In this document: piece by piece, positions 4,837 through 59,778 of the stretch
Position numbering within the stretch: the first letter of the stretch is position 1
How the letters are laid out: every line of letters starts with the position of its first letter
From: Candidatus Babeliales bacterium
GTDB lineage: Bacteria; Babelota; Babeliae; Babelales; JANWKD01
NCBI GenBank assembly: GCA_963722255.1
Contig: CAVRJO010000002.1
Span: 256,001 to 320,000 of the forward strand
DNA: 64,000 nt
Direction of reading: 5' to 3'
Program-made: the position numbers and the translations under genes
The notes under the pieces: generated by a model
The model's input: the letters and a program-made list of their open reading frames with translations, nothing else
What the model was told of the DNA's origin: nothing
The model's database searches: none

Positions 4837-5724
4837 ATGAAAAAACTTATGCTCATTATAGTTACCTTAGCATTAACAATTCCCTATAAAAATTACCCAA
4901 TGGAAACTCTTACTGCCCTTCCCTCATATTGTTATGAGTATTTCAAAACATGTGATCTTACCAAAACTATTCTTGTTGCAACGGTTGGCATATTGGTCAT
5001 TGACAAATTTTATCCTATTTTTCCAAGAAAAAAACAAATAGTGCAACCATCCCCGACATTTGATCGAACAGAAATGATCGAACAAATTAATAGCAAAATA
5101 AACGAATATTCAGAAATTATAGCAATGCCTACAATTGCGGGAGTTATTGAAAGATTAAATGATTACGTATCTTTACAAACTTTTAATGAGAAGGTCAGTT
5201 TCTTTGAACAAGAAAATAATGGAGTACAACAATATCTCAGAGATCATGATTACAAATCGGAGATAGAAAGAATTTCTATAGCAATTGAGGCTTTTACCAA
5301 ACCGCCTCGAATACAACTTCCTTTACCAAAGGATTCATTGGAGATGTATGAAGTTGTTGGTAATAAAGACATAGAATTTCAGCTTAAAACATTCCGTGCA
5401 GAACTTGCAGAATATCAAAAAACAGCTAATTCAATCCAAGGTTATTTAGAACTAATTAGTGAACAAGGAAAAGCTACCACACCGCGCACGTATACAAGTG
5501 ACGACGATAACAATAATAGTACAATACTAGGTTTTATTGCTGAAGAAGAAGAAGAAGAAGAAAACAACGAGCCTCCTTTTGGAACATTAGTCCCACCTCT
5601 TAAGCTTGAAGATCTTAAATTAAATAGTTCTGCAAGTCTAAAAGTGGATGAATCTAATCAGAATAGCCCTACTTCTGTAACTCCGGCACCTAATTCATAT
5701 TCATATGTGCACATAAGTAACTAA
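4837..5724 (+). CDS. Hypothetical secreted/membrane protein with acidic, Ser-rich C-terminus
   Basis: 295-aa ORF with AGGAG RBS and an N-terminal signal-like segment. Confidence 0.7.
   Translation: MKKLMLIIVTLALTIPYKNYPMETLTALPSYCYEYFKTCDLTKTILVATVGILVIDKFYPIFPRKKQIVQPSPTFDRTEMIEQINSKINEYSEIIAMPTIAGVIERLNDYVSLQTFNEKVSFFEQENNGVQQYLRDHDYKSEIERISIAIEAFTKPPRIQLPLPKDSLEMYEVVGNKDIEFQLKTFRAELAEYQKTANSIQGYLELISEQGKATTPRTYTSDDDNNNSTILGFIAEEEEEEENNEPPFGTLVPPLKLEDLKLNSSASLKVDESNQNSPTSVTPAPNSYSYVHISN
5542..5562 (+). repeat. (GAA)7 microsatellite encoding poly-Glu
   Basis: Seven consecutive GAA triplets, read directly. Confidence 0.9.
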
Positions 5725-6305
5725 TCTACTTTACCAACAGCATCAATCTTTTTACCAAGAATGATGAAAAAGATAATAGAAAATAAGTAGCTAACAATGT
5801 ATTGAAAAATATGCATTCTTAAAATCCCTGCTTTCAAGGCCGGACTTGTTTTTATAATTGTTTCAGTTGAACTTTTTACTACTGTTATATTTTCGGCATT
5901 GGTAAAATCCCTAATAGCCTGTAATACCACAGGATAATAGTGTATACTGACCAACAGCCCAACTATCAAAACAAAAATCGTTCCAAGTAATAAATAAACA
6001 CCTAAACGAATGCCAACCGGAAATCCCAAACAAATAAACCGTTCTATAAAATTTTTATTATCATTTTTTTGATTTATATAAAAACAATGCTGAAATCCCC
6101 ACACAAGAATACCCACTTGAACACCAAAAAAAAGAGGCTTAATAAGCATTTCATACGGATTCACCGGCGTAAATGTAGAGGCTTGTTGAAAGGCAAAGAG
6201 CTGTAAAAAAGAGGTAGCCAACAAATACCTCATTTTCTCAACCTCTGTAACAATATCAGCGCGTAAATCTTTAACTAACTGATCAACATTCCAAAAATAA
6301 AACAT
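5721..6305 (-). CDS. Hypothetical integral membrane protein (~4 TM)
   Basis: AGGAG RBS before MFYFWN; hydrophobic segments; FIERFICLGFP motif. Confidence 0.75.
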   Translation of the reverse strand: MFYFWNVDQLVKDLRADIVTEVEKMRYLLATSFLQLFAFQQASTFTPVNPYEMLIKPLFFGVQVGILVWGFQHCFYINQKNDNKNFIERFICLGFPVGIRLGVYLLLGTIFVLIVGLLVSIHYYPVVLQAIRDFTNAENITVVKSSTETIIKTSPALKAGILRMHIFQYIVSYLFSIIFFIILGKKIDAVGKVD

Positions 6306-6329
6306 ATAATCTCCTTTCAAAAAATATCA

Positions 6330-6560
6330 TTAGTGAGGAAAATCTTTTGATTCAGCCCAAGCATCATCATTATACATAGAACAGTTACATGCCCGAACAC
6401 ATTCATCAGAAACAAAACGTCCTGCTTTGCAACATTGGGCACAATCAATTTCCGTAAAAGGACAACTACCATCGACACACTCAGTTCTAATTTGTAGTAT
6501 AGAAAATGATTGTACTATCAAAAAACCTACTATAACTATTTTTTTTACAAAATTTTTCAT
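6330..6560 (-). CDS. Small secreted Cys-rich protein
   Basis: AGGAG RBS, signal peptide, eight Cys in the ~50-aa mature part. Confidence 0.65.
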   Translation of the reverse strand: MKNFVKKIVIVGFLIVQSFSILQIRTECVDGSCPFTEIDCAQCCKAGRFVSDECVRACNCSMYNDDAWAESKDFPH

Positions 6561-6778
6561 CGTAACACTCCTTCTTTTCAAACTTAATTAATTCTTTTGA
6601 GTATTATAAGCAATACCCTTCCAGTCTCAATAGTACCAAAATTAAAATTCAAATATCAATAGTTTTAAAAAATATTTATTTATATAATTCCTTGCAGTAT
6701 TGATACATCACCCTTGCTTTTGGTATCTTAATAATGATCACAGTGATCATTTTGTACCTTAATAAAGGAGTAATTATC

Positions 6779-7279: not shown

Positions 7280-7373
7280 ATAGTTTCTTTTTTGACAACA
7301 TTCCCAAGATTTTGATAAAGTTATGCCCAATTATTAGTGTGCAACAAAAAAAATTTTGGGAGCGTTTGTTTAT

Positions 7374-8840: not shown

Positions 8841-9017
8841 AGGTAATAAATAATAGCATAAAATAGGTAAAACCACAGAATTTAAGACCTACGGAAATTA
8901 ATCAGTTTTGCTTCATAAACATTATTTACAAATAGGGCTTTTGCTTCTTTATTACTATTACTATATACTAAAAGGAAAATAGTAGTTTTAATAACCTTAT
9001 ACAGAGGCAACCTTTCT

Positions 9018-10649: not shown

Positions 10650-10662
10650 AAATAGGATATTT

Positions 10663-12327
10663 ATGAAAATTATGAAACTAGTAGTAGCGCTTATTGCGCT
10701 CATTCCCTTATACACAGAGCCAATGCAAAGCGAAAAGCTTATTTCCTTTGCAAAAATTTTACCATCGCAAGCAAAACAGCTTGCCTGCATGTATCCTAAA
10801 ACAACTGCTGCCCTCTTGGCAACCACCGCTTTAGGTACTACCTGGTATTATGCAAATGGCTACGAAAGGCGTGAAGATTGGGACAATCAAGAATTGGATA
10901 TGACTAAATTCCCTAAGGAAACCACTTGGGGAACCGCCAACTCAGACCTTCAATTATGTGGTGTTCAAACAGTAAAGGGCAAAAAGGTAAAAAATAGTTG
11001 GACAAAATGGCAAAAAGAATTGATTACACCAAAAGACAATCGTCCTTGGTGGCAGAAATTTTTCTATGAAAATCCAAACAGTACAAAAGTTCCTCGTATC
11101 CCTAAAAAACAAAGGATGGGAACCGCAACAGGCCACTGGGATAACTATCAAGAAGATTTTAAATTGTTAAAAGAAGCGGGAATTGAAACATTTCGAACAT
11201 CAATTGAATGGAGCAAAATTCAACCAGATTCTCATAATGAGTATGATACTAAGGCAATGAAATATTATAATGACTATCATAAAGTATCAACTGAAGCATT
11301 TAAAGAAGTTACCATCAATGGATTCCATCATGCTTGGCCCGATTGGTTTGATGAGCTCGGCGCTTTTGAAAAAAAGGAAAATATTAAATATTATGTCGAC
11401 TATTATCTTTGGATGGTTGATCAATTGGCTCAAGAAGGCAATCTTAACGAAATTAAGCGATTTTTAACCTTCAATGAACCTGCAGGTTATGTACTCGCTG
11501 CGTATGTTTATGGCAAATATCCTCCTGGCGAAAAAATGCAGCTCAAAAAAGCTGGAATTGTCTTAAAAAACATGCTTGATGCCCACGTTGAAATTTATCA
11601 TAAACTTAAAGAAAAATATCAAGAACTACAGATAAGCATTGCTCATATGATGCAGCCATTACAACCTTACAATCCTTGGAATCCTCTCGATGTATTAACA
11701 GCGAAGCTATTTAATCATTTATTAAATAATGTCACCTTAGAATATCTTTCTACCGGTAAATTTAAATGGTTATGGTACATAAATGAAACAAATGAGAAAG
11801 CTAAAGGAACTTTAGATTTTGTAGGTGTTAATTATTACACCCATACACTCCTAAACTGGTTTAAGCCAAAAGTTCGCCCTACTGAGATTAGTTCTGATGC
11901 TTATGAAGGTGAAGAAGGAAAAGCACTCTATGCAGAGGGTTTCTATGATTCCCTTAAAACGGTTCATCGTTACTTTCCAGACAAGCCTATCATGATTACA
12001 GAATTAGGTTTTGCCTCAGAGAATAATGAAAAACGAACTGAAGCTTTCAAAAGATTTTTCCTTGTTCTACAAAGAGCAATACATAAAGATAACATGAAAA
12101 TTCTTGGCGTTGAAATCTGGGAATCATTTGCCGGTTATGGCTGGAACCAAGGGAATGGTGGCAAACATGCTCTTTTTGATGTCGATTATACTCAAGAAGA
12201 TAAACCACGAAAACTCAAACCAAGTTCCGAGGGTGTTTTAAATCTAATTGCTCAACATAAAAATTCTCGTAATGATCAACAGCAAAAAGAAACTGATACC
12301 TCAATAAACCTGGAAATAAAAACATGA
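10663..12327 (+). CDS. Glycoside hydrolase family 1, secreted, copy 3
   Basis: RTSIEWSKIQP, TFNEP, ITELG; signal peptide plus a second hydrophobic segment. Confidence 0.93.
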   Translation: MKIMKLVVALIALIPLYTEPMQSEKLISFAKILPSQAKQLACMYPKTTAALLATTALGTTWYYANGYERREDWDNQELDMTKFPKETTWGTANSDLQLCGVQTVKGKKVKNSWTKWQKELITPKDNRPWWQKFFYENPNSTKVPRIPKKQRMGTATGHWDNYQEDFKLLKEAGIETFRTSIEWSKIQPDSHNEYDTKAMKYYNDYHKVSTEAFKEVTINGFHHAWPDWFDELGAFEKKENIKYYVDYYLWMVDQLAQEGNLNEIKRFLTFNEPAGYVLAAYVYGKYPPGEKMQLKKAGIVLKNMLDAHVEIYHKLKEKYQELQISIAHMMQPLQPYNPWNPLDVLTAKLFNHLLNNVTLEYLSTGKFKWLWYINETNEKAKGTLDFVGVNYYTHTLLNWFKPKVRPTEISSDAYEGEEGKALYAEGFYDSLKTVHRYFPDKPIMITELGFASENNEKRTEAFKRFFLVLQRAIHKDNMKILGVEIWESFAGYGWNQGNGGKHALFDVDYTQEDKPRKLKPSSEGVLNLIAQHKNSRNDQQQKETDTSINLEIKT

Positions 12328-13719: not shown

Positions 13720-13723
13720 CTAG

Positions 13724-16415: not shown

Positions 16416-19400
16416 ATGCACAACAGATCAAAACTCATACTTATTCCTTTATTTCCTCTTTTCTTTCAACTCTTTGCTATGGAAAAAGAGCTCGGAAATG
16501 ACTTCTATTTAAGTCAACTGGAAAAACAGGTACAACCTGCCCTGGGTCACAGATTATATGTACCAGGATTTAACAGCTCTATAAAAGAATCAAAAGATAA
16601 AAAAAAGCAAGAAGATCAGTCTCAACTTGATCCTTTTAAAAGCCAACCATTCAAGCATTTAAAATATCAAAACAAAGCAGTAGGCAAAGTTACAAAATTT
16701 TCTGATAATTTCAGCGAAGGAGTTTCATCACATGATCAACCAATGTCTTTGGATTCTTTTATTAGCGGACTAGCCAATGTAAGTGCAAATATTATCATTA
16801 CCAGAGCAGTGGGTCCTTATGCAAGTGCGGCGATTAGCGCATGCTCAGAAGCCAAATATCTCAGAGAGAAATTTGATGAATTAAATACTGAAATCAGTAA
16901 TAACGCAATAACTGATAATTGGTGCACAATGAATCTTGGATGTACATACCAAGAATCAATTGAAGCTCTTAGAGTCGTTCTTAGTGCAGCAGAAAAACTC
17001 GATCAACAAAAAAGAAAAGTTATTGAAACACATAAAGCAAAGCTCAGGCAATTTGCTGATTTTGTTCTCGAAGGTTATAAATCTGCTCAAGAAAATTATC
17101 CGGAGCTATTTAAAACAAAAGTAAAAAAAGACAATAGTTTGAGAATTTCTAACATCCCCGAATTTGATCTTGAAAAATCTCACCAAGAATATTGGGCGCA
17201 GCATCAACGAGACATACAACAATTTGAAAAAGAATCAAAAGTTCGCATTGCTACATCTAAAAGCAAAAAACCAGCAAATTCAAAATCACAAAAAACTAGC
17301 GCAAAAAAAGATAGTAATAGCAAAAATGCAGCAGCAACTGACACACCTCAAATGCTCACTCCTGAAATGCTTGAAGAACATGCTAAAATTTTTGCTGAAC
17401 AAATAAAAAAACTAGACGCGTTGTCCAAATATAATGAATTCAAATCAGAAATGGAATATCAAGAAACAATGGGCAACATTGCGGGTGGGTTCAATGGCAT
17501 AGCGGCCATTGCAGGTATTTTTGGTCACAAAAAAGAAGCGTACGCGATTAGAACTTTTGGTGCTGCAGGAATTCAAGCTGTTGATAGTATGCGAACTATT
17601 ATGCAAAAAGGTCTGGCTGGCGCCGGAATTCATCCTTATGTTGGCATACTTATGGCAGTTGAAGGGTTATGTGAGTTAATGTTTCAAGAAGAAGATGATT
17701 CTCAAGCAAAAAATACAGAAGCAATCATTAATGCCATAACACAAGGCATTATGCATTTATCACAACAAATGTACCAAATGCGTGAAGAAATGCGCGAACA
17801 GTTTGAAGAAGTTCGCAAAAGGGACACCAAGCATCATTTTATTGTACTTGAAAAATTCTTTGCGCTTCATTTAGATCAAAAAAATATCTTGCACAACTTA
17901 CAAGATCTGCATAACTATATAGCTCACAACCACAAAGCAATTCAAAGTGGCCTTGAAGCATTGCATGCACGAGTTGATAGTAATTTTAGAATGACTCTTG
18001 ATAACTTAAATGGTTTGCGCGTAGAAGATATTGATGATGATATTCAAGAAGCATTATTGTTACCCGATGATGCTTCACCTGAAGAATTTGGTAAATGCAT
18101 ACAAAATCTCTTTATCAAAGGAACAAGTCGCGCTTCGGCCGATTCATTAACGGGCGGTTCGATTGATATACATTCGCCAACGGCACTCCAAACAACACTG
18201 GAAGGCCCTATAGTTCAACAAAATATTTTTGGGCATCCTGCTTTTCCAAATGTTAATCTTTTAAGCAGATATCTTGAAGGAAATTTTAACAATTTTAAAC
18301 ATGAAAAGTTAGTTAATCCTTTAATTTGGATTAAATGCGTCGATACGATTGTGCCTATGCTTAGTCAAAAACTTGCGCGTGATAAAGAATATCCTCCAAC
18401 AAAAAACATGAAAGATTCAGATATCGAAAAATTACTGCTTCTCAAAAAACAAGGGAAAAAAATACGCGCGTTTATTAACAGAGTTTACGAGAATAACTAT
18501 TTAGAGAAAATTGCTCAAAAATATTACAAGGCTTTATCGCAACTTTCTGCAGCAGTTCAGCAGGAGCAAGAAAACTTTGAAAAAAAAGGTAAGAAACTAC
18601 TTCGTAGAGAACTAAGCGCTACTATAGAAGCTGAAAAATCAAAAACAAATGGAATAGTAAATTCGTATGAATGTAAAAAATGCGTTGAATATATAACCAA
18701 TGCATTAAAAAACGCAAAGACAGCAAACGCTTATACCGTACAAGTACAAGGAGCGGGATACTCCTGTCCAACTTATTTGAAAGGACAATCAAAACGAATT
18801 GATTATAAAGAATCAAAATTGATAACAGTAGAAGATGTTCATCAACCCTCTGAAAATTTTAAACGGATCTATGAAGAATACCTAGATGAAAGACAAGCAA
18901 AGAACGAATCGTTACTCAAAGCAACAAAAGTTGACCTTGAGCAAAGTTCTTTCAAACCTATTGGAGATGGTATGAGCACTCTGATCTATCCAGCTGGACA
19001 AAATAGTGATTTGCCTAAACTTATGCGACCTCGCCAGCCATTACCTATAAACCCATTATATATTATAGCAGAAAATAAAGGCCTAGGAATTATTACACAT
19101 ACCTATCATCTTACAGATGAACGTTTCCACCTTGAATCTTTTTTTTGCTTTAAAACAGATGATCCTAAAATAAAAATTTTACATTTATCTTTAGAGCATG
19201 ATTTTCAAAAAGAGATGTATACGCTCAATGAAAATATAAACCACTTCTGGGAAGGAGGACGTTTTCCAAAGTCTATTGATACTTTTACAACTAACGGAGT
19301 ATATCCTAGTAGTGCTTTTACAGTACGGTTTGATGGTGCTCTTGGCCTTATATCTTCAGGGTATTTTCCGCCTGATTGCCCATATCCAGCAGCACGAGAT

Positions 19401-26650: not shown

Positions 26651-29053
26651 TCAATCTTTTTTACGACTTTGAGCTCGTTTAGCTTGTGATGCTTTTGATC
26701 GCCTTAATCTCTTAGCATAATCCGTTTCCTTCAATTTCTTAACAACTTCCTTTGCTTGTTCTTCTATAAAGCGCTTTTGTCGCTTAGCTTTCATGTGCGC
26801 TTCTTTTGATTCCCTTAATTTTTCAGCATATCCAATCTCCTCCAATTGCTTAACAGCTCCCTTTGCTTTCTCTTGTATAAATTTCTGATTATGAGCTTCT
26901 ACCATTGTTTTAATTTCTTGTGGCAGATCGTTATAGCCAAGCTTAATAAGAGGATCGATAGAAATAAATTTATCTTTTGCTAGATCTATCGATCTGAAAA
27001 TATAATATATTAGTAACGCCTGATCTAAGGGAACATAGGGTTGATTAAGAAAAGAAAGAATTAATACTGGGGAAATATCAAGACACAACAGTTTATTTTC
27101 ATTAACTGTAGCATATAAAAAATTATTTTTTAATGTTAAAAATTTACTTTCATATTCAGAAACATTTTTTGAATATTCAAATTCTGATAACATTCTTCCT
27201 GTATTTCGATCAAAGAAATTAATTAAAAAATCACCAGATAAAGCTACATCAAAAGGACTACGATATAATCCACATGCTAAAATAGAGGGTGATACAAAAT
27301 ACACATCAACTACTCTTTGTCCTTTAGAAATATTCCTCTTCCATAGCTCTTTTTTTGTAGACAAATCAATACACATGATCGTATTGTCAGCAGTTGCAAT
27401 AAAGATTTCCTGGCCATCTGGCGAAAAAAGAGTTCCCCGCACAATAATTGGCCGCGCCCATACCGCGTGCTGAGCATTCACATTAAGAACAACAACAATT
27501 GCTTCCCTTTTTGATACCACTGAAAACAGGCTATTATCTTTTGAAAAGGAGCCTATATAAGGAACGTTAGAAAGTGGCTTTTTAAATGGCCAGGCTATAG
27601 CCCCTTCATCGTTGAAACTATTTTCCACCCTCACTAGTTCTTGAGAAAGGGAGATAATTTTTTTTCCATTAGGCGAAATATAATAACGCTCTATAGCAGT
27701 ATTTGCCTTAATTTTAATGGTATGACCGTTAGTAATATCAAGGATCCAATATGACCTCAACTCCTCAGGCCATTTCATCAATGCAAGGCTTAATGTTTTT
27801 GAATCTGAATCGTAATAACTATTTTCGGCAATTTGGCCTCTTTCTGGAAATGGTTTTTCAAATACCACGTTGCCAGTGCCAGCATCTAATACCATTATCT
27901 TTCCGCTTTTACGATCTTCCATAACAATTCGATTAACATCAGAAAAAAATCTCAAAGGCCGTACTGTTGGGAAATCAAAAGAATTTGTAGTCTTTAAAAG
28001 CTCACCATTCTTAACATCAAATATTGTTATTGGTGATGGTAATTCATGATAAAGTAAGATTTTCGAACTATCCGACGAAAACAGGAGATTGCCAAAAATA
28101 TAGGGTTTTTTCCATAACAAGAGATTTGTTGCGATATCTATAACTAGCATTGTAAGATTTTTTGCTTTTATAATCATTGTCTTTACATCAGGAGATATAA
28201 TTATTTTTCCGTTATATTCCCTCTCCCAAACACGTTTTATTATTGATTCTGGTAAGATTTTAAAAATTGATTTCGCTTCAGCGCATATTTTTTGAGATAG
28301 AGGAATTTGCATTTCTTCTGGCAATCCTTGCACGAGATTAAGATAATGATGCAGTTTTTTTTCTGTATTAATAGCTTTTAAACGCTCTAATAAAAGAGTT
28401 CTATATTTTTTTAGTAACTTCTTGCTATCTAAATAGTTTGCTGTATTAAGCATATCAATTAGATTTTCATCAGATAACGGATCAACATCATACGGAATAT
28501 TCGTTAAATCTTTATGAACATATTCAAAAATAGACACAAACTCATTAGGAATTGGTATTGGAATAGTATAATCTTCTACATCATTAAGAATATTTTTGAG
28601 CGTTACCGACTTCTTTGCTTTCGCTAACGACAAAACGTACTCAACCTCACCAACGATAATGGTAATATCAATTCCTCGATCAGTAATAACTTCAGAATAT
28701 TTCTCAATCAATTGTGGAATTTTTAAAATCGATGCTCCAGCCAATAAACGATTTATCATTGTATCATCAAGATCATTCTCATCATACTTTTGGCCGACTA
28801 AATCTTTATAAATATATGCAAAAACCTCTGGAGAAATGGTATCCGATAAGTCGAGAGGCACTTCAAAGTCTTTATGCCTTCTCATCATAGCTGCTAAAAT
28901 TTCTGATTTCCGAGCCTGATTCTTAGTTAATTCATAACTACGATCACCAACTTTGATTTTAACACTTTCTTCCTGCTTCTCCATTGCATAAAAAACAGAA
29001 ACAAAAAATAAAAAACTGCTGAACACACTTATAATTCTTTTACTATTCATCAC
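26651..29053 (-). CDS. Secreted protein with two Skp1/BTB-like domains and a WD40/PQQ-like beta-propeller
   Basis: KKSVTLKNILND..IPIP..LIDMLNTANYLD (Skp1-like, duplicated); repeated ISPDV/FSSDS/ISPNG/FSPDG..LW blades. Confidence 0.78.
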   Translation of the reverse strand: MMNSKRIISVFSSFLFFVSVFYAMEKQEESVKIKVGDRSYELTKNQARKSEILAAMMRRHKDFEVPLDLSDTISPEVFAYIYKDLVGQKYDENDLDDTMINRLLAGASILKIPQLIEKYSEVITDRGIDITIIVGEVEYVLSLAKAKKSVTLKNILNDVEDYTIPIPIPNEFVSIFEYVHKDLTNIPYDVDPLSDENLIDMLNTANYLDSKKLLKKYRTLLLERLKAINTEKKLHHYLNLVQGLPEEMQIPLSQKICAEAKSIFKILPESIIKRVWEREYNGKIIISPDVKTMIIKAKNLTMLVIDIATNLLLWKKPYIFGNLLFSSDSSKILLYHELPSPITIFDVKNGELLKTTNSFDFPTVRPLRFFSDVNRIVMEDRKSGKIMVLDAGTGNVVFEKPFPERGQIAENSYYDSDSKTLSLALMKWPEELRSYWILDITNGHTIKIKANTAIERYYISPNGKKIISLSQELVRVENSFNDEGAIAWPFKKPLSNVPYIGSFSKDNSLFSVVSKREAIVVVLNVNAQHAVWARPIIVRGTLFSPDGQEIFIATADNTIMCIDLSTKKELWKRNISKGQRVVDVYFVSPSILACGLYRSPFDVALSGDFLINFFDRNTGRMLSEFEYSKNVSEYESKFLTLKNNFLYATVNENKLLCLDISPVLILSFLNQPYVPLDQALLIYYIFRSIDLAKDKFISIDPLIKLGYNDLPQEIKTMVEAHNQKFIQEKAKGAVKQLEEIGYAEKLRESKEAHMKAKRQKRFIEEQAKEVVKKLKETDYAKRLRRSKASQAKRAQSRKKD

Positions 29054-29880: not shown

Positions 29881-30528
29881 CTATTTATTATCATATTGTT
29901 TGAGTAGTTCTAAAACTTTGGTAGTCTCTTGATCAATGAGTTTTCTCTCTCCCATTAATTTACAAATTGTTTCTACCAAGAACTTTGTGCTTGCAAAATC
30001 TCTTGTACGCATCCACTCTTTATATGCAGACATTTGCATTTTGGTATCTTTAAAAAATACCTCCTGGTTAGGGCCAAAATCACTATAAATTCTTTTTTTA
30101 GCCTGTGTTACATCATAGTTTTTCAAAATTTCTTTTTTTTCTTTTTTCCAAGCATCGTCAAGATTAGCGTAAAGATATTCACGGATATAATCAGCATCTT
30201 CACCTGCTTCTACGGCGCCTCTTTCAATAAGCATATTATAGTATCTCTCTTCTCCTACTTTATACATATGAAATTCTGCAAAAAAGTTCCCATAAGCAGC
30301 CAACAATGCGGGATTATCATTATAATCGTCGTTAGATAGAATAGTTCTGCCTCTTTGTATAACAATTGAATCAGTCTCTACATTCAATAGCTCATTAAGC
30401 CGTTCAGTTACAGCTATATCTTTGTTAACAACTTCTTTAGCTTCGCCTTTCTTTTTTTCCATAGCGTTCATACTATTCATTGAAGCGACACAAAACATAA
30501 GCATCAGACTTTGTTTGTAATTAATCAT
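29881..30528 (-). CDS. Hypothetical secreted protein
   Basis: Signal peptide ending NAME; N-terminus shared with 47772-48449. Confidence 0.75.
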   Translation of the reverse strand: MINYKQSLMLMFCVASMNSMNAMEKKKGEAKEVVNKDIAVTERLNELLNVETDSIVIQRGRTILSNDDYNDNPALLAAYGNFFAEFHMYKVGEERYYNMLIERGAVEAGEDADYIREYLYANLDDAWKKEKKEILKNYDVTQAKKRIYSDFGPNQEVFFKDTKMQMSAYKEWMRTRDFASTKFLVETICKLMGERKLIDQETTKVLELLKQYDNK

Positions 30529-30723: not shown

Positions 30724-31476
30724 ATGAAAATACTCAATTCAGCATTTTATTTCTTAACAATTTTCTATGCAACTTCATCTTATGCAATGGAACAAAATAA
30801 TCGCATATCACAACAAAAGTTTAACAATCCTACTTTTTTAGAAAAAATCTGTAAATCTGATGGAGTATTATTAAGAGCAGCTTTAGACCAAGGGCTTTCA
30901 CCAAATGCTCACATGTATCCTTATGTACAATTATTGACCTATGTTTTAGATCATTCCTATTCACATTCAGTTAACAATGCAAAAGAATTAGTAAACCGTG
31001 GTGCGATTGTTAGATCTTCACATGTCTATGAATCTATAAAATTTCATGATATAGAACTATTCACTATCTTGCTTAATGCATGTACAGACTTTGATATAGA
31101 AGAAGACAAACAACATGGGTACCATGGTTATACACTTTTACATAGTGTAGCGGCTAGGGGAGGGAATTATGAACTGGTAGAAAAATGTATGCAATTAGGT
31201 TATAACATAGAGGCACAAGATGATAAAGCTGGCAATACTCCGTTATTTGAAGCAATATTAAAACTTAAAATACCTGCTATAAGAGCATTGATTGCTCATG
31301 GAGCAAACCTTCATGCAAAAAATAAATCTGGTAAAACCATTTTAATGTGCGCAGAACAAAATTCAACGTTGATTGCTAAAAATATAAAAATGCATTTGAG
31401 AGTGCAAACTTATCTTGGGTTAGGTAAACAGTTACCAGTTGAAATAACTGACCATATCGCCAGTTTCTATAAGTAG
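30724..31476 (+). CDS. Secreted ankyrin-repeat protein with C-terminal F-box-like motif
   Basis: TLLHSVA, GNTPLFEAI, GANLHAKNKSGKT; ends LPVEITDHIASFYK. Confidence 0.88.
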   Translation: MKILNSAFYFLTIFYATSSYAMEQNNRISQQKFNNPTFLEKICKSDGVLLRAALDQGLSPNAHMYPYVQLLTYVLDHSYSHSVNNAKELVNRGAIVRSSHVYESIKFHDIELFTILLNACTDFDIEEDKQHGYHGYTLLHSVAARGGNYELVEKCMQLGYNIEAQDDKAGNTPLFEAILKLKIPAIRALIAHGANLHAKNKSGKTILMCAEQNSTLIAKNIKMHLRVQTYLGLGKQLPVEITDHIASFYK

Positions 31477-32296: not shown

Positions 32297-32929
32297 TTAA
32301 ACATTTTTTTCCTTATCCTGTTTTTGCAGCGCATCTTTTTCATATTCCAGTAGCAAATCAAGCATTGCACATGCTCTGCGATAATCAGAAGTGTTAACAT
32401 CGAATTCTTCCATTTTTTCTTTGAGAATATTTTTAGGGGTTTCAGACGGACGCACAGCTTTGTTGATATCTGGGTTGTAGACAAGCAAAACATTAAAAAC
32501 ATCAATCAGCAAATGCCTTGATGCATATTGCAATAAGGTATCGGAAGTTACTGCAAAACTGCCCATTTGCAAAGACAACCCTTCTTGCATTTTCAATGTA
32601 CCTTGAAGTCGAGAAGAAAAACACTCATTAACATGACTAGAATCTTCATCAAGCAACATTGCTACCATTTTAACATCATTTGCCTCAACGGCATTAGAAA
32701 GAGAATGTATTTCAGGATTAACTCCTTTTTTGAGAGCAATTCTAACTAATTCTTCACAACCAGAAAGCGTCCATAAAGGAAAATTGCTTAGATCTCCGTG
32801 AACTACTTTATAACTTTTAATAAATTTTTTGAATTCACTTTTAGTATATGGCGATTGGTTCATACAGAGTATTGAAAAACTGTATGTAATTAAGCTTAAT
32901 GATAAAATTATTCTATTTTTGAAGAGCAT
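32297..32929 (-). CDS. Secreted ankyrin-like protein, paralog of 31503-32213
   Basis: Same shared motif as 31503-32213; signal peptide ending LCMN. Confidence 0.75.
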   Translation of the reverse strand: MLFKNRIILSLSLITYSFSILCMNQSPYTKSEFKKFIKSYKVVHGDLSNFPLWTLSGCEELVRIALKKGVNPEIHSLSNAVEANDVKMVAMLLDEDSSHVNECFSSRLQGTLKMQEGLSLQMGSFAVTSDTLLQYASRHLLIDVFNVLLVYNPDINKAVRPSETPKNILKEKMEEFDVNTSDYRRACAMLDLLLEYEKDALQKQDKEKNV

Positions 32930-33112: not shown

Positions 33113-33766
33113 ATGAAATTTTCACTCTTACAGATATTAATTTTTATGTTACCTTTTCAAACTTTTTCCATGAATAACGATACATTAAATATAATTCAAT
33201 TATCTACAATTGAAACAAAGGAATTGCTTTTGGGTGCATGTATTGAGAATACCGCATCTAATTTAGAACGGATATTGAATTCTGGTATTTCACCTGATAC
33301 AACTGTATATCCATTATTAGCGAAATGCTTAAGTAGCGGCAAAAAAGAACATATCAATTTGCTTTTAAACAGAGGAGCAACTGTTACCAAATCACACATT
33401 TTGAAATCAATTAATTTAAAAGATCTTGAATTATTTGGGCGCTTAATTCGCCAATGTAAAAATTTTAATTGCAATGAAAAACTATTACCCCATAATAATG
33501 AAACACTTTTACATGAAGCTAGCCGCAATGGATCTTCTGAGATAGTTGAAAAGCTCATTTCGCTCGGCGCTGATTTGGAAGCAGAAGATGATTTCGGGTA
33601 TACACCTCTCTTTACTGCCGTTGCACATAAAAATATACCCGTAATTAAAACGCTCTATACTAAGGGTGCAAATATACATAAAAAAATTAAATCAGGAGAA
33701 ACTGCTCTTTCTAGACTTCAAACAACCCTACCAGAACTTGCAGAAGAAATATTAATAGAAAAGTAA
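33113..33766 (+). CDS. Secreted ankyrin-repeat protein
   Basis: TLLHEASRNG, GYTPLFTAV, GANIH; paralog of 30724 and 33790 but without the F-box-like tail. Confidence 0.88.
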   Translation: MKFSLLQILIFMLPFQTFSMNNDTLNIIQLSTIETKELLLGACIENTASNLERILNSGISPDTTVYPLLAKCLSSGKKEHINLLLNRGATVTKSHILKSINLKDLELFGRLIRQCKNFNCNEKLLPHNNETLLHEASRNGSSEIVEKLISLGADLEAEDDFGYTPLFTAVAHKNIPVIKTLYTKGANIHKKIKSGETALSRLQTTLPELAEEILIEK

Positions 33767-33789: not shown

Positions 33790-34542
33790 ATGATGAAACA
33801 TATGATACTAATTCTTCCACTAATAGTGCTCTTAAATATCAATGCATTGATTTATACCATGAATAAAGATAACCAAACTATTAATCTTACGCAGTGCAAT
33901 AATCCAGCAAAGCTCTACACAAATGCTGACGTTTTATATAATTTTTGTAAAGTTGAGAATTTAGACCTATTGAAGTATGCATTAAATCACGGACTGTCTC
34001 CCAATACTGCACTTTTTCCCTTGTTAAAAACCACACTATCCAATGGCGCAATCGAATCTGCAAAGGAATTAATAAAAAGAGGAGCTTATGTTAGTTCTTC
34101 ACATATTCGTCAATCAATATCGTTATGCGATAATGAATTATTCAATAGCATATTCTCTGCTTGTGAAGATTTTGATATTGAGGAAGAAAAAGAAGAGTAC
34201 TGGCATACCTTATTACATGAAGCAGCAGCTAAAGGAACTCCCGAAATGGTCGAAAAATTCATCGAATTAGATTTTAATATCGAAGCACAAGATCGTCGTA
34301 ATCGTACACCATTATTTGTAGCAGTGAAAGCGGGTAATATCCAAAAAATTAGAGTATTAATCGCCAAAGGCGCTAACCTTCATGCAGAAAATAAATCCGG
34401 TAAAACTATTTTAATGCTTGCCCAAAAATCACCGATAGCTGCAAAAAATATTAAGGTACGTATGCAAGGTCTATCCTATCTTAGTTGTGGTAAACAGTTG
34501 CATGTTGAAATAACTGACTATATTGCTAGTTTTTATAAGTAA
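33790..34542 (+). CDS. Secreted ankyrin-repeat protein with degenerate F-box-like tail
   Basis: TLLHEAAAKG, RTPLFVAV; ends LHVEITDYIASFYK; close paralog of 30724-31476. Confidence 0.88.
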   Translation: MMKHMILILPLIVLLNINALIYTMNKDNQTINLTQCNNPAKLYTNADVLYNFCKVENLDLLKYALNHGLSPNTALFPLLKTTLSNGAIESAKELIKRGAYVSSSHIRQSISLCDNELFNSIFSACEDFDIEEEKEEYWHTLLHEAAAKGTPEMVEKFIELDFNIEAQDRRNRTPLFVAVKAGNIQKIRVLIAKGANLHAENKSGKTILMLAQKSPIAAKNIKVRMQGLSYLSCGKQLHVEITDYIASFYK

Positions 34543-35634: not shown

Positions 35635-36136
35635 TAATATTCAAACAAATACAAAAAGAAATATTATTGACATTTTATTAAGCTTTGTTATTATTTATAA
35701 TAATTGAAATATTTCAATATTTTTTAATAATAAGAAATCTATTATGAAGATTCATAACAAAATTCTATTAATAATACCACTAATTATTGGCTTAGGTTTA
35801 GTTGGAAATAGCAATGGGATGCGCATCAAAGAGAAATTGTCTACATGGGATCCTGCAACCCGCCATCCTTATGCTCAACCCATAACAACTGATAAAGGTA
35901 ATGGATATACATGGAAAATCCGAGAAACTTACAGAATTTGGGGCATAGGTGTATATACAGAGAAGGTGCTTTATCAACAAGTAAGAGGCAGCTATAATTA
36001 TCCCTATCCGCCAGAAGAACTAGAAAGATCTGATTTTACACTATGCAAAAAGATAAAAGCTCTTTTAGGCGGCGCTGCACTCTTAACAGCTGGTGGGCTT
36101 TGGTATTGGTGGAAACATAAAAATTAGCTTATTTAT
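35635..36136 (+). repeat. Direct repeat copy 1 (gene plus upstream region); copy 2 at 38966-40219
   Basis: Near-identical sequence visible by eye. Confidence 0.9.
35744..36127 (+). CDS. Hypothetical secreted protein with a C-terminal membrane anchor
   Basis: Signal peptide; C-terminal ALLGGAALLTAGGLWYWWKHK. Confidence 0.75.
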   Translation: MKIHNKILLIIPLIIGLGLVGNSNGMRIKEKLSTWDPATRHPYAQPITTDKGNGYTWKIRETYRIWGIGVYTEKVLYQQVRGSYNYPYPPEELERSDFTLCKKIKALLGGAALLTAGGLWYWWKHKN

Positions 36137-46823: not shown

Positions 46824-47687
46824 CTATACAATGAAATATTTATTACCCTCAAGTGCCATTATAGCATCTTTTGATTTGCACAGTTCTTCTACCGCTTTCA
46901 AACTATCTTCGGATTTTTCTGACATAAGATCACTATAATGGCGATAAAAAGGCTCTGAAAGAGGATTGGATAAACGAAGAGACCTCATTTTTTCTGCTAA
47001 AATTTCTTTACGAGCTTTAATTTTCTTATTCGTTGAACTAATTCTTAGTTCATGCGCAACCGCTTTAGTTGGTTGTATCACTATAGAATTGAGCGCAAGA
47101 TATAAAAGCAATGATGATCCGGCAAGAACCCCAAGACTTCCCGCAAGCACAGGTGAAAGAATAATACATTGAACTAAGGTCTCAGATTTGTCACAAAACA
47201 TATCACCTAAACCAAATCCAACATATGTCCCCATTGATCCAAGAAACAAATTTAATACCCCATCTGCCATTTCACATACACAAATATCATTAGGTTCTTT
47301 TGTTAGTTTTTCTCGAAGCTCAAGGAATGTTTTTAACTTTTGACAATCCACCATTAATGCATAATAAATCTTATCAGTTTCTTCATCATCACTGTCTGTG
47401 ACATACGTCCTATACAATTGCAATTGCATAATTGTCTTTTGTGATGAATATTTTTTTCTACAATTTTTTTTTAATATAGAACTATTCTGAGTATAATCAA
47501 AGGTATGTTGACCTGCTGCAAGACTTACGGTTCTTAACGATCTTGATACAACGGGTTGAGTAGATACAGCGCTCAATAGTTTAGTGCTTTGTGAGCAAAC
47601 ACTATTGCCAATCCTATGTTTCATTGCATAAAGAGGATTAAAAAGCAGAACAAAAAATAGCGGTAGTATTTTATTTACATGTTTCAT
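46824..47687 (-). CDS. Hypothetical secreted protein with a basic Ser/Arg-rich leader and two TM segments
   Basis: Signal peptide ending LYAMK; hydrophobic segments in the middle. Confidence 0.72.
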   Translation of the reverse strand: MKHVNKILPLFFVLLFNPLYAMKHRIGNSVCSQSTKLLSAVSTQPVVSRSLRTVSLAAGQHTFDYTQNSSILKKNCRKKYSSQKTIMQLQLYRTYVTDSDDEETDKIYYALMVDCQKLKTFLELREKLTKEPNDICVCEMADGVLNLFLGSMGTYVGFGLGDMFCDKSETLVQCIILSPVLAGSLGVLAGSSLLLYLALNSIVIQPTKAVAHELRISSTNKKIKARKEILAEKMRSLRLSNPLSEPFYRHYSDLMSEKSEDSLKAVEELCKSKDAIMALEGNKYFIV

Positions 47688-47771: not shown

Positions 47772-48449
47772 TCAATGTTCCTTTTCTGAATCAAGCATTC
47801 TTAACTTTGCAAACAAAAGATCTTGTTCAGCTTCTTTTTGTCTCAAAATGCATGCTTGTTTTTCCTGTTCCAATTTTTCTTGCATATCTCTACGTTTTTT
47901 GTATTCTGCATTGTATTTTCCTATTAAAATATTACAACCTCTTTGGCCATCTGAATATTGACAAATACCATGTTGAATAATCCGTGTCTTTAAAATATCA
48001 ACATCAGTATCAAGTAAAAGTTTTGTCATTTCTTCAGATACTTGAACAGCCAGGCTAAAGTATTCATCAATTGGACCATCTTTAGGGTCGTGATAATCAG
48101 CGATAAACTTTCTTACAAGAGGAATATTGTTAGATCCTATTGCTTTACTAAAAAGTTTTGAAAATTCATCAGAGGTTACACCATCTTTAGATATATAATT
48201 TCCATGACCATCTCTATTACTACAAATCAACCCTTCTAAAAGTTCCATTTTTTCATGTTTTTTGCATTCAATGAGTTCTTCAATCATCTGATGACGTTTT
48301 GCTCTGGTATAACCCATTGCCAAAAATTGTGATGCAAGAGTTTTTCTACGCTCTTGAGAACATGATTCTTCCCATCTTTTTTCCATAGCTTGCATATTCA
48401 TTGAAATGACACAAAATATAAGAATCAAATAGTGCTTGTAATTGATCAT
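47772..48449 (-). CDS. Hypothetical secreted protein (weakly ankyrin-like)
   Basis: Signal peptide ending QAME; AI.SNN..LVRKFI and TKLLLD segments. Confidence 0.72.
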   Translation of the reverse strand: MINYKHYLILIFCVISMNMQAMEKRWEESCSQERRKTLASQFLAMGYTRAKRHQMIEELIECKKHEKMELLEGLICSNRDGHGNYISKDGVTSDEFSKLFSKAIGSNNIPLVRKFIADYHDPKDGPIDEYFSLAVQVSEEMTKLLLDTDVDILKTRIIQHGICQYSDGQRGCNILIGKYNAEYKKRRDMQEKLEQEKQACILRQKEAEQDLLFAKLRMLDSEKEH

Positions 48450-55488: not shown

Positions 55489-55581
55489 TGTTTACAAATA
55501 CCTATTAAAAAAATTTTTTTCAATTACAATGGTATAAACAGTTTATCAAAAATAGCTAAATGCACAACTAAAGGAATATTC

Positions 55582-55908
55582 ATGAAAAGGATCCCATTAG
55601 CCATTTTTTTATTCATGACAATGCAATCTTTAAGCGCAATGGAAAAGTATATACATCACCAACCTCATGCATGTACACCTTCAAAGCACACAAAAGAAGC
55701 CCAATCGTTCACAGAAGACAACCCCGGATCTTGCTGTTTTTGTGGCTTGGTAACCTGTACCTGCTTTACGGGTGTGGGAACCTGTTTATCATTAACCCAT
55801 TCAGCCCCAATGGTTACCCTAGCAGCATGGACATGCTGTTTTGGCACCTCATTGTATGTTCTTAAAGAAATCGCACTAGCATACTGGGAAGATAAAAAGG
55901 ATCAATAA
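55582..55908 (+). CDS. Small secreted Cys-rich membrane protein
   Basis: AAGGA RBS; signal peptide ending SAME; CCFC..C.C...C..CC in hydrophobic segments. Confidence 0.7.
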   Translation: MKRIPLAIFLFMTMQSLSAMEKYIHHQPHACTPSKHTKEAQSFTEDNPGSCCFCGLVTCTCFTGVGTCLSLTHSAPMVTLAAWTCCFGTSLYVLKEIALAYWEDKKDQ

Positions 55909-57372: not shown

Positions 57373-57472
57373 CATAATTCTTTTTAGGACAAGCGTGTAC
57401 ATTTTTTTTAACAAATGTACACTAGATTATAATGATTTCACGTAACCTCATACTATTACTTATTGGATTTTT

Positions 57473-58588
57473 ATGACTAGACCCGCACTTAGTTTTGAAG
57501 AATTTCGTCCCAAAATACTTTTGGTTGGCATTCATGCGCCTTATAACCATACTTCCAATATCCAAGCGTATTATGATGAATTTATTAAATTAGTAGAATC
57601 AGATAATTTAAGATACGATGAAACGCTCTTTTTCAAACTTCGTGAAATTGACGCAAGCACGTTTGTCACCAAAGGAAAATTAGAAGAGATCGCTGAACTG
57701 TGCGATAAAGAAAATATCGATGAAATAATTTTTTCAGAACCTTTATCACCACAACAAGAACGGAATTTGCGGGATTATCTTCATCGAAAAGTTTTCGATC
57801 GCAATCAGCTCATTTTAGAAATTTTTGAAAAAAATGCACATTCTGCTGAAGGAAAGATGCAGGTTCAAATCGCTATGCTTCAGCACAAAAAATCTCGCCT
57901 TGCCGGTAAAGGAGTGACGCTCGGACAACAAAAAGGTAAAGGTGCAATTGGCGGAGCCGGTGAAACAGGAAAAGAACGTGAACGGCGGCATATAGAAGAA
58001 GAGATCTTAAAAATTAAACGACATCTGCTCAAATTAGAGCAAACTAAAGAAACACAACGCAAACAGCGCCTAGGTAATAAAATGCCTTTAGTATGCCTCA
58101 TTGGTTATACAAATGCGGGAAAATCTACTATTCTCAATGCCCTTACCAAAAGTGATGTTTTAGCCGAAGATCGTCTATTTGCAACGCTAGACACGACAAC
58201 ACGCCAACTCTTTATTAATAGCAAGAAAAAGGGACTTATTTCAGATACTGTTGGTTTTATACAAATGCTTCCAACCAAACTTGTTGAAGCCTTTAAATCT
58301 ACCCTTTCTGAGCTTAAGTATGCCGATCTTTTATTACACGTTGTTGATCTTTCTGATAAGAGTTGGGAAAACCATATCAGCGTTGTGCAGGAAATTATTG
58401 CTGACTTAGATATTGAAAAACCTATTCTCTATGTCTTTAACAAAACTGATGAAGTTGAAATAACACCAGAACTTGAAACAGCTCTTAAAAATTATACGCC
58501 TCATGTATTAATTTCTGCTATTTCAGAAGATGGATTAGATGAACTTATTACGTTTCTTGATTCCTGGAAAAAAGATACCCAATTTTAG
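57473..58588 (+). CDS. hflX: GTPase HflX
   Basis: GKLEEI, LSPQQERNL, GYTNAGKST, LFATLDTT, DTVGFI, NKTD. Confidence 0.96.
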   Translation: MTRPALSFEEFRPKILLVGIHAPYNHTSNIQAYYDEFIKLVESDNLRYDETLFFKLREIDASTFVTKGKLEEIAELCDKENIDEIIFSEPLSPQQERNLRDYLHRKVFDRNQLILEIFEKNAHSAEGKMQVQIAMLQHKKSRLAGKGVTLGQQKGKGAIGGAGETGKERERRHIEEEILKIKRHLLKLEQTKETQRKQRLGNKMPLVCLIGYTNAGKSTILNALTKSDVLAEDRLFATLDTTTRQLFINSKKKGLISDTVGFIQMLPTKLVEAFKSTLSELKYADLLLHVVDLSDKSWENHISVVQEIIADLDIEKPILYVFNKTDEVEITPELETALKNYTPHVLISAISEDGLDELITFLDSWKKDTQF

Positions 58589-58734
58589 CATATCAATATT
58601 TTCATATAAGTAACAAATCATAGTTTTTATAGAGTGTGTATATAAAATTTTTTATACACCCTTCACACCATTATAAGAATATATTAAGGTAGGTGTAATT
58701 GTAAAAACTAAATTCTTGTTTTAAGGAGTTTTTT

Positions 58735-59778
58735 ATGAAAAGAGTAATGACATCCCTCATACTGCTTCTATTGAGTGCCGGGTCACAAGATCTTTATGCA
58801 ATGAAACATAATAAGAAAAAACATCGTAAAAAGCCTCAGCACGTCGGCGCTCAAAATAACTCAGAAATAAAAGGTAAAAACGCCCGCAAAAAAACAACTC
58901 TCATAGGTTTTATACAATCAGGTGATATTAAAATTCCTGAAACTTCTATTAGCGAACAACCTGTTGAAGTTCTTGAACCTTTATTCAAGGCATTACATTC
59001 TTCTGTGACTGTTGCTACTCCAAAAAAAGAAGCCCAAACAACCTATGCTCATACTAGAGCAATTCTTGATGAATTATCCAAAAAACGTGGTGACAAAAAA
59101 AAGGCAAAAGAAGGTCTCCAGGGTTTTGCTGATGATTTTAGCGATGATGAAAAAAATATGAAAGCACTGTGGCAATTTGATTCAAAGGAAGATATTGCGG
59201 ATCCAACAAAAATATATTTGGGAATAATGGCGGGTTCTACTTCTCCATGGAAAAATCATGTATACGAATATATGAAAAATAAAAACCAACTGTGTGAAAA
59301 ATATGATACACAGATTGTTGCAAGAGAAAGCACTCTTAAAGATCTTAATGATCAAATAGTTTCGCTTCAAAAAAAAGCACAAGAAGAACATGAACACATT
59401 CAAGCACTCACATTAACCAAAGAACACCATGAAACAAAGCTTAAATCTGCTGAAATCTATTCTGCTGACCTCGTTGATTACCTTACTGGGCAAATAGAAG
59501 AAACAGTCGGGCTTATCGAAAATTACGATAGTGATTTAGATAAATTAGACCTTCAATCATCTCAATTGAGAAAAAACAAAAATACGGATGTAAAAAATTT
59601 TAATGAACAAACTTCTAAAAATAATTTAGAAAAAGGAAATATACTTACAAAGAAAAAAGAAGCTGAAACAATTTTAAAACAATTAAATGTAGCTTTAGAG
59701 CATGTTAACCAAAATCTTCCAAAAGCACGTGATGGCGGTTCTTTTGGACGTCGCTATGTCTGGGGCAAAAGCTTCTAA
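58735..59778 (+). CDS. Hypothetical secreted coiled-coil protein
   Basis: AAGGAG RBS; signal peptide ending LYAMK; KKKHRKK; long coiled coil. Confidence 0.75.
   Translation: MKRVMTSLILLLLSAGSQDLYAMKHNKKKHRKKPQHVGAQNNSEIKGKNARKKTTLIGFIQSGDIKIPETSISEQPVEVLEPLFKALHSSVTVATPKKEAQTTYAHTRAILDELSKKRGDKKKAKEGLQGFADDFSDDEKNMKALWQFDSKEDIADPTKIYLGIMAGSTSPWKNHVYEYMKNKNQLCEKYDTQIVARESTLKDLNDQIVSLQKKAQEEHEHIQALTLTKEHHETKLKSAEIYSADLVDYLTGQIEETVGLIENYDSDLDKLDLQSSQLRKNKNTDVKNFNEQTSKNNLEKGNILTKKKEAETILKQLNVALEHVNQNLPKARDGGSFGRRYVWGKSF

Follow-up and report, generated by a model that had tools for sequence, protein, structure and literature searches.

In the bacterium considered here, a protist-parasitic member of the Babeliales (Dependentiae/TM6), about a third of the proteins with a leader-like N-terminus carry a methionine directly after the leader, and the residue that follows this Met is most often glutamate. 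The window analysed is a 64,000-nucleotide stretch (C2:256001-320000) of the genome designated G000, which comprises 1.618 Mb in two contigs at 34% G+C and belongs to family f1 of the order; other f-numbers used below denote other Babeliales families, and G074 is a genome from another genus of f1. The PcrA of G000 has 57% identity to the protein of a 'Candidatus Babeliales bacterium' MAG, followed by matches in other Dependentiae. The initial annotation of the window had drawn attention to a Met at position +1 behind the hydrophobic leaders of 14 proteins. It read this Met as giving effectors a native-looking N-terminus in a eukaryotic host, as a sorting signal, or as a trace of leaders grafted onto complete genes. 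The observation is confirmed; the interpretation is partly supported.

Genome-wide, the excess was assessed over 1591 non-overlapping open reading frames (ORFs) of at least 80 residues. Leaders were called with a crude heuristic of our own for the n/h/c regions of signal peptides, whose calls include membrane anchors and some false ones. The ORF caller takes the first start that gives a leader and is to that extent biased towards leaders; an outgroup control of 1.3 Mb (76 loci from other phyla) was processed identically with the same script and yielded 173 leader-bearing ORFs. A leader-like N-terminus is present in 719 of the 1591 G000 ORFs (45%). In 244 of these (34%) a Met is preceded by allowed residues at both -3 and -1, our strict class, compared with 9 of the 173 in the outgroup (5%; Fisher p = 7e-17). 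The strict proteins fall into 201 BLAST clusters, so that the excess is not an artefact of paralogy.

The position of the Met was examined in two ways. Counted along the chain, 40-69 Met residues occur at each position from 15 to 19 residues past the start of the hydrophobic core and about 10 elsewhere; the 319 proteins with a Met in that zone served as the logo set. When cut sites were scored blind to the +1 residue, Met stood at +1 in 145 of 600 G000 proteins, where it was the commonest residue, compared with 6 of 140 outgroup proteins. Met at +1 thus lies above background, at about 7-9 times the outgroup rate, and the predicted cut site also coincides with it, as the initial annotation had supposed: of 336 proteins, 157 had their best blind -3/-1 site exactly before the Met, whereas chance, given the 14 positions scored in each, would place it there about 1 time in 14.

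Aligned on the Met, the logo set has a K-rich stretch at -22 to -17 and an L/I/F-rich one at -16 to -7, and the median leader length is 22. Position -3 is L in 83 of the 319, I in 45, S in 43, A in 26, V in 25 and T in 24, with L, I, S, A, V, T or C in 259 altogether; position -2 favours F (53) and Y (40); and at -1 there is A in 89, S in 61, G in 48, C in 28 and T in 23, together 249. Position +1 is M, followed at +2 by E in 126, N in 34 and Q in 26. With the predicted junction marked by an arrow, the consensus is [L/I/S/A/V]-[F/Y]-[A/S/G/C/T]↓M-E. A lipobox test found no signal for signal peptidase II, position +1 being Met and not an invariant Cys; Pal, with LAGC, provides the contrast. In the strict class +2 is Glu in 118 of 244 proteins. 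Asp, Glu, Asn or Gln is found there in 177 (background 23%), a small residue in 26 (background 34%) and a hydrophobic one in 20 (background 34%).

Start codons and selection at the junction

A Met so near the N-terminus raises the question of which Met starts translation. It is very improbable that the second Met is the sole real start and the leader a chance open frame. AT-rich DNA does translate into peptides rich in Lys, Asn, Ile, Phe and Leu, but the Shine-Dalgarno signal stands before the leader start and not before the Met: a score of at least 4 is reached by 45% of leader starts and 45% of the best starts of non-secreted genes, against 1.6% of internal Mets and 5.1% of random internal ATGs. 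The leaders, moreover, obey the n/h/c and -3/-1 rules and are open and hydrophobic in orthologs from other genera and families, and the same pipeline returns only 5% in the outgroup. Codon usage points the same way. In the context of an allowed -3 and a small -1 residue followed by X-Glu, X is encoded by ATG 122 times, by GTG once and by TTG never, where 5-17% of real starts are TTG or GTG.

These counts also bear on a second scheme, in which the internal ATG would be an additional start, giving a cytoplasmic short form beside the secreted long one. The strict conservation of the ATG would suit it, as would a LigD phosphoesterase-like family described below, whose Met is kept with an uncleavable residue at -1 and a small one at +2 as at true starts, and 55% of real G000 starts likewise have no clear Shine-Dalgarno site. 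However, besides the Shine-Dalgarno and TTG/GTG figures, the +2 residue is unlike that of real starts (48% Glu behind the Met, but 6% as second residue in non-secreted proteins), the upstream sequence gives no sign of an internal promoter, -10-like hexamers not being enriched before the internal Mets in G000, and a cytoplasmic pool of ankyrin and WD40 proteins would have no evident use. We regard dual initiation as improbable, though less so than a spurious leader. The internal Met is therefore not the start codon, which the initial annotation had named as a possible refutation. The leaders are genuine signal peptides of the Sec type, each with a start codon of its own upstream from which it is translated. 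Codon use at -1 and +2 equals that of the genome, which places the constraint on the protein rather than on a DNA or RNA motif.

Conservation of the Met was measured first among G000 paralogs, in a set of non-independent pairs where the ankyrin family predominates. Where the mature parts are less than 30% identical, the Met is present in the partner as well in 57 of 75 cases (76%), compared with 22 of 258 internal Mets (9%); between 30% and 40% identity, it is kept in 80 of 112 cases and internal Mets in 53 of 286. Alignment of 67 pairs on the Met shows 4-24% identity at the flanking positions, 33% at -1 and 60% at +2. Leaders are not common to unrelated proteins, just 1 of 29,460 pairs reaching 55% identity, and shared leader cassettes were rejected on that count. 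In G074, of which 800 kb was read, Met follows 111 of 361 leaders (31%), with E (49), D (13), N (11) and Q (7) at +2. An ortholog candidate in G074 was obtained for 29 of the 244 G000 Met proteins, and 14 alignments spanned the junction; the Met is kept in 8 and displaced by a gap in 2 more, the other 4, which have none in G074, being a secretin, a membrane protein and two proteins of the Met class. A search for leaderless G000 paralogs whose start aligns with the Met gave four near-N-terminal matches, none of them informative. A wider ortholog search, in 1.6 Mb from 17 relatives, gave 18 usable matches, mostly ankyrin paralogs.

Two ortholog series bear on the origin and the retention of the Met. 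The first is a LigD phosphoesterase-like protein (C1:11557-12249) found in 100 of 201 genomes searched; 23 sequences were read among the 30 matches listed, the motif filter having missed the other 7. A hydrophobic leader plus Met is present in 18 of the 23 (f1, f2, f3, f11, f17 and f19), a single sequence has the leader but no Met, another carries a short extension that is not hydrophobic, and three (G025, G180 and G087) are leaderless and start at that very Met, which identifies it as the ancestral start codon in this family. The LigD 3'-phosphoesterase domain is normally a cytoplasmic DNA-repair module. As a separate observation, in most Babeliales this stand-alone domain protein (L164; loci L184-L213) has a leader that runs directly into a Lys-rich stretch, which is odd for a Sec substrate; the protein may instead be membrane-anchored.

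The second series is an orphan family (C2:210602-211174) found in 28 of 201 genomes. Its 21 readable N-termini, 18 of them short N-terminal pieces, together with two from G000 and one from G001, all have a leader. The Met at +1, by contrast, follows lineage, with 6 of 6 in f1, 3 of 4 in f2, 2 of 6 in f3, 1 of 4 in f9 and 0 of 1 in f8; members without it have A↓S, A↓H, A↓G, A↓L, A↓E, S↓K, S↓E or T↓Q there. This fits a rule at the level of lineages rather than a relic left gene by gene.

The idea that leaders were grafted onto complete genes thus stands for the LigD phosphoesterase family and fails as a general or neutral account. As such an account, it would make every Met an old start codon, left behind when a leader was added by 5' extension and not yet mutated away. 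The three leaderless orthologs fit this, as do the J-domain, thioredoxin-like and other cytosol-type domains that lie directly behind the junction. Nevertheless, it is unlikely to be the whole explanation: it does not predict the excess of Glu at +2 (48% against 6%), the persistence of the Met in 76% of pairs whose flanks are at random level while internal Mets fall to 9%, or the lineage-bound Met of an orphan family that always has a leader, and a proportion of 34% of leaders would require hundreds of very recent independent extensions. The Met, and then the Glu, are kept by selection at the amino-acid level on the mature N-terminus.

Proteins and lineages that carry the motif

The kinds of protein that carry the Met were surveyed among leader-bearing ORFs of C1:1-400,000 lying inside single 20-kb loci. 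The 52 Met-class proteins include 6 ankyrin, 5 WD40/beta-propeller and 2 J-domain (DnaJ) proteins, with 33 of no family and one each of Sel1/TPR, GNAT, LigD 3'-phosphoesterase, DUF1796+DUF6624 and ABC permease, the last a false call. GNAT proteins lie at 45775-46683 of the window and at L177:15279-15833. The 107 leader proteins without Met contain no ankyrin protein and a single WD40 fragment, and for the most part they are hydrolases and housekeeping proteins of the membrane or periplasm; among them are FtsH, transporters, FtsW, LspA, MreC, an amidase, a rotamase and a TolB-like PD40 protein, along with substrate-binding proteins, peptidases, hydrolases, proteins of no family and some false calls. 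When G000 ORFs matching the ankyrin model were taken as a set, 29 of 33 have a leader, 25 with the Met (two of these were missed by the heuristic and read by eye) and 4 without.

Envelope proteins behave differently. BamA (A↓EQSG), one secretin (A↓QPEE) and Pal, with its lipobox, have no Met; the other secretin does (PT↓MNNT), although it is not conserved in G074. A second match to the Omp85 family, at C2:452274-453179, has three internal stops (one TAG, two TAA). The split that the initial annotation had proposed between eukaryote-like and housekeeping exports is therefore borne out, with the Met on ankyrin, WD40, J-domain and orphan proteins and absent from Skp, BamA, a secretin and periplasmic enzymes. 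What it marks is the rapidly evolving portion of the secretome, made up of eukaryote-like and orphan proteins, and not envelope housekeeping.

Frequencies in relatives were estimated from small samples (37-200 kb in 13 genomes from 11 other Babeliales families), in which effector islands may or may not have been caught. In f2 the strict Met rate is 26% in G001, mostly M-E, and 11% in G003; in f3 (G005) and f4 (G007, n = 18) it is 28%. Intermediate values are seen in f6 (G040, 15%), f9 (G048, 15%), f12 (G043, 15%) and f13 (G045, 10%), while f11 gave 8% in G041 and 20% in G039. In f8 (G019) the rate is 9%, in f5 (G047) 5% and in f7 (G010) 4%. Met frequency is thus a property of lineages within the Babeliales. 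The +2 residue varies as well, M-E being the form in the family of the window and in G001; M-D or M-Q, often followed by L/P-P, in G005 (L094-L103); and M-H frequently in G040 (L104-L113).

Weak support comes from a noisy DNA-pattern index of the motif over 121 Babeliales genomes. With a swapped-codon control, f14, f1, f2 and f19 score highest (medians 2.3-2.6, against 1.15 for outgroup loci), but the index and the ORF method disagree for G047 (1.9 genome-wide against 5%). A reversed-pattern control was discarded as uncalibrated, giving 3.7 for outgroup loci and 3.8 for G000.

As to machinery, G000 has YidC, Ffh and two genes for signal peptidase I (TIGR02227), with YidC and a split Ffh inside the window. 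The signal peptidase genes, at C2:137881-138756 and C2:701907-702773, are near-identical over their N-terminal 80 residues, so their duplication is recent. A dedicated second signal peptidase was considered and rejected, the LepB copies being near-identical and the number of copies, one or two, in 60 relatives sampled by genome search, all from the same order, being unrelated to the rule.

Could Met-Glu simply be what the peptidase processes best? Fast-evolving proteins would then drift towards this optimum at P1'-P2' and conserved ones keep older junctions, with no function after cleavage. The variation of the rate by lineage, even inside one ortholog family, would accord with such drift, as would the preference for one +1 residue at phylum level reported for the Bacteroidetes Q-rule in excerpts of its description (PMC5837995). 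Acidic residues early in the mature part favour export. Against it, G000 has many lineage-specific secreted hydrolases and orphans with the ordinary junctions A↓Q, A↓A and A↓D, LepB copy number bears no relation to the rule (one in f2, two in f7), and we know of nothing that makes Met a preferred P1' residue. We consider this explanation unlikely, to about the same degree as a neutral relic.

The same distribution over proteins and lineages would accord with a tag for a second sorting step, in which Met-Glu is read after Sec cleavage and moves its cargo over the outer or host membrane, away from periplasmic residents. The motif does set eukaryote-like and orphan proteins apart from housekeeping proteins of the periplasm and envelope, only two residues are selected at the new N-terminus, and +2 differs between lineages (E in G000 and f2, D/Q in G005, H in G040) as it would with a co-evolving receptor. 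G000 also has a type II system, with two secretins. Yet no receptor candidate was found, secreted-looking hydrolases, and leader-bearing ankyrins of relatives, have no Met, and type II systems occur in all TM6 genomes according to excerpts of a genome paper (PMC4776705) whereas the rule is patchy. In its strongest form, Met-Glu would be a bacterial host-targeting code of two residues, read once Sec export is complete, by which some Dependentiae direct eukaryote-like effectors in their hundreds across the outer membrane and into the protist cytosol, an undescribed receptor co-evolving with +2 (E, D/Q or H according to family). Both the tag and this stronger form seem to us rather unlikely, if less so than a substrate optimum. 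Beside the type II system, type IV pilin or pseudopilin-like N-termini (G↓F-S/T-L/M-I-E) occur among leader-like ORFs at C1:194616, C2:3006 and C2:240324 (gene-strand coordinates), consistent with the type II and type IV pilus genes reported for the phylum.

The 14 proteins of the window and their surroundings

In the window itself, all 14 ORFs are present as first described, each with an ATG immediately behind a hydrophobic leader of 19-25 residues; the quoted junction dipeptides are correct throughout and M-E, M-N or M-Q is indeed found in 11. All 14 leaders have a positively charged n-region and an uncharged hydrophobic core. The proteins make up 14 of the 34 leader-bearing ORFs of the window, compared with 5% in the outgroup (n = 173; binomial p = 5e-10). 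Skp/OmpH (63039..63689, plus strand), the housekeeping contrast, ends its leader LIVKA↓DDKK and has no Met, as had been noted. A small residue stands at -1 in 12 of the 14, and in 9 there is an allowed -3 residue as well. Pfam finds one GH1 protein, one BTB plus beta-propeller protein, three ankyrin proteins and one weak ankyrin match, leaving eight of no family. Minus-strand genes had originally been listed by their start codons, and the entries 32929, 33113 and 47687 are internal ATGs of a longer TTG/ATG frame, in each case the sensible start.

On the plus strand, a 295-residue orphan protein has a 21-residue leader and Met-Glu (4837..4905; ATG at 4900-4902), with Pro at -1 and a Shine-Dalgarno AGGAG before the leader start. 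A GH1 glycosidase paralog follows with 20 residues and Met-Gln (10663..10728; ATG 10723-10725), also with Pro at -1. It is the third of three tandem GH1 beta-glucosidase paralogs at 7356-12327, all with a leader and only this one with the Met (EP↓MQ). A 1629-residue orphan protein has 21 residues and Met-Glu (16416..16484; ATG 16479-16481). The three ankyrin-repeat proteins have leaders of 21 residues with Met-Glu (30724..30792; ATG 30787-30789), 19 with Met-Asn (33113..33175; ATG 33170-33172) and 23 with Met-Asn (33790..33864; ATG 33859-33861). The remaining plus-strand cases are orphans, one of 127 residues with a leader of 25 and Met-Arg (35744..35824; ATG 35819-35821), a Cys-rich one of 108 residues with 19 and Met-Glu (55582..55644; ATG 55639-55641), and one of 347 residues with 22 and Met-Lys (58735..58806; ATG 58801-58803).

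Five are on the minus strand. The 800-residue BTB/beta-propeller protein has a 23-residue leader with a GTG start and Met-Glu (28979..29053; ATG 28984-28982); it has just two homologs in a large protein collection, from which no family alignment could be obtained. A weak ankyrin-like protein has 22 residues and Met-Asn (32858..32929; ATG 32863-32861). The other three are orphans: one of 215 residues with a leader of 22 and Met-Glu (30457..30528; ATG 30462-30460), one with 21 and Met-Lys (47619..47687; ATG 47624-47622) and one of 225 residues with 21 and Met-Glu (48381..48449; ATG 48386-48384).

Split housekeeping genes occur in the G000 assembly, so that some ORFs are fragments. Within the window, essential genes lie in pieces at 581-1971, 23867-26480, 52281-53556 and 54562-55488. 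In murC, 913-1971 matches profile positions 1-338 and 581-823 matches 378-448; in uvrA, 23867-25471 matches 232-605 and 25551-26480 matches 640-941, the first 231 profile positions not being seen. There are at least two pieces of trmD, and ffh matches just positions 1-291 of a 428-position profile. Either decay or indel errors in the assembly could account for such fragments.

Mobile elements are present too. An IS4/IS5-family transposase (DDE_Tnp_1/DUF4096) occurs in five copies of identical N-terminal sequence, at 39403-40122 of the window and at C1:49016, 271653, 284817 and 215718, and an IS5 fragment lies at the left end of the window (54-491). At 21409-22700 an AbiEi-like antitoxin ORF overlaps by 4 bases a 233-residue ORF of no family, possibly a type IV toxin-antitoxin pair.

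Role of the motif and comparison with known systems

We infer that the Met-Glu N-terminus has a function, as a native-like start in the host or as a sorting tag, and we favour the former. Signal peptidase I would most likely cut between the small residue and the Met, so that the exported protein would begin Met-Glu or, less often, Met-Asn or Met-Gln. Some of these Mets may originally have been the start codons of cytosol-type proteins, to which 5' extension then added a leader. They would afterwards have been retained, and in some lineages newly acquired, as Met followed by Glu, Asn, Gln or Asp is an ordinary protein start for a eukaryotic cytosol. The observed +2 profile is that of a retained Met not read by the known eukaryotic N-degron branches. 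With such a start there is no trimming by Met-aminopeptidase and no basic, bulky hydrophobic or small-residue N-degron, so a protein released into the host would be stable. A native-looking N-terminus in the host is plausible on these sequence grounds. Experimental precedent comes from two bacterial toxins whose N-terminal residue, in excerpts of the reports, governs activity in the cytosol through the N-end rule (PMC3755998, PMC2518864).

Taken whole, from real signal peptides through a selected Met-Glu N-terminus that marks a class and a lineage to a native-like, stable start in the host, we put this reading at roughly 45%, a little short of even. Several observations weigh against it. The cut sites are predicted by heuristic, and signal peptidase I does not accept Pro at -1, which makes the site doubtful for the 2 of the 14 window proteins that have it (4837 and 10663). 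In the LigD phosphoesterase family, -1 is small in just 10 of 18 junctions and V, L, F, E or R in the other 8, with a small +2, so that a signal peptidase cut at that bond does not explain the Met there. The paralog counts lean heavily on ankyrin pairs that are not independent of one another. Leader-bearing ankyrins without Met occur in relatives, as in G040 (A↓QEIT), G019 (A↓DFNN) and G041 (A↓APAA); a Met start is thus not required for such proteins, and some of these +1 residues are destabilising by the N-end rule. A route from periplasm to host would be needed as well; the type II system with its two secretins exists.

A further difficulty concerns NatB, whose acetylation of Met-Asp, Met-Glu, Met-Asn and Met-Gln the initial annotation had invoked. 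The match holds in that D/E/N/Q occupies +2 in 177 of the 244 strict proteins and 11 of the 14 in the window. Otherwise it is weak, as NatB treats Asp like Glu and Asp is found at +2 in only 10 of 244 G000 proteins, where it is not enriched, although it is in G005 and G074. Moreover, the substrates of NatB are nascent chains, a point against acetylation after import, and its action on an import that has already folded is unlikely.

Whatever its role, the Met would have practical uses. Dependentiae export nearly half of their proteome, and we know of no account of how the exports meant for the host are distinguished from the rest or reach it. As a mark of the ankyrin, WD40 and orphan class, the two residues provide a list of candidate effectors, about 250-330 in G000. 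They also provide a caution, since gene prediction could place the start of such genes at the internal ATG, in which case the signal peptide would be missed.

The secretome itself agrees with published ones. Excerpts of Dependentiae genome papers report signal peptides on 44% of the coding sequences of Chromulinavorax destructans (PMC6561590) and on 78% of ankyrin proteins in one case and 79 of 126 in another (PMC6561590; PMC4378268), compared with 45% of ORFs and 29 of 33 ankyrin ORFs in G000. The word methionine is absent from the three main Dependentiae genome papers (PMC6561590, PMC4378268, PMC4776705), 'cleavage' from the Chromulinavorax paper (PMC6561590) and 'cleavage site' from that on Babela massiliensis (PMC4378268). 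No description of Met after signal peptides, in Dependentiae or elsewhere, was found in titles and the opening parts of abstracts, supplements being left unopened. The Met-first rule therefore appears as a lineage-specific rule for which we found no published description and whose purpose is unproven.

In most respects the leaders are classical Sec/signal peptidase I peptides, with a positive start, a hydrophobic core, small residues at -3 and -1 and a median length of 22. They differ at +1, where the textbook residue is mostly Ala and Met is rare, while in G000 Met is the commonest.

A parallel in function may be the PEXEL element of Plasmodium, a short element behind the signal sequence that marks the host-directed secretome. 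It is cut by a dedicated aspartic protease in the eukaryotic ER, leaving a new N-terminus that has Glu, Gln or Asp second and is acetylated. Both systems would have a short post-leader element marking a host-directed subset, with D, E or Q second. The present one, however, is bacterial; cleavage presumably falls to signal peptidase I, and neither a further protease nor a modification is known for it. With the anthrax toxins EF and LF the likeness is that an exposed N-terminal residue decides lifetime in the eukaryotic cytosol, although those are single toxins tested experimentally, in the excerpted reports (PMC3755998, PMC2518864), and ours is an argument from a proteome-wide sequence bias.

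The closest known precedent is the Q-rule of Bacteroidetes, in which, from excerpts of its descriptions (PMC5837995, PMC10653852), Gln stands at +1 of signal peptidase I substrates and is cyclised to pyroglutamate. The words methionine, TM6 and Dependentiae do not occur in the first of these papers (PMC5837995). In both cases there is a lineage-specific excess of one +1 residue over many unrelated exports, and in both it is thought to concern the stability of the N-terminus. Here, however, the residue is Met, with Glu at +2, and no modifying enzyme is known or proposed for it. As far as those excerpts go, the Q-rule is phylum-wide and covers most signal peptidase I substrates, periplasmic ones included, whereas the Babeliales Met is patchy within one order and is found on about a third of leaders, those of accessory, eukaryote-like and orphan proteins only. 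Its narrower reach is seen in Skp, BamA, one secretin, substrate-binding proteins, the amidase and the rotamase, none of which has it. The Babeliales would be a second bacterial lineage, after that of the Q-rule, to fix the first residue of its exports, and in their case for a single functional class.

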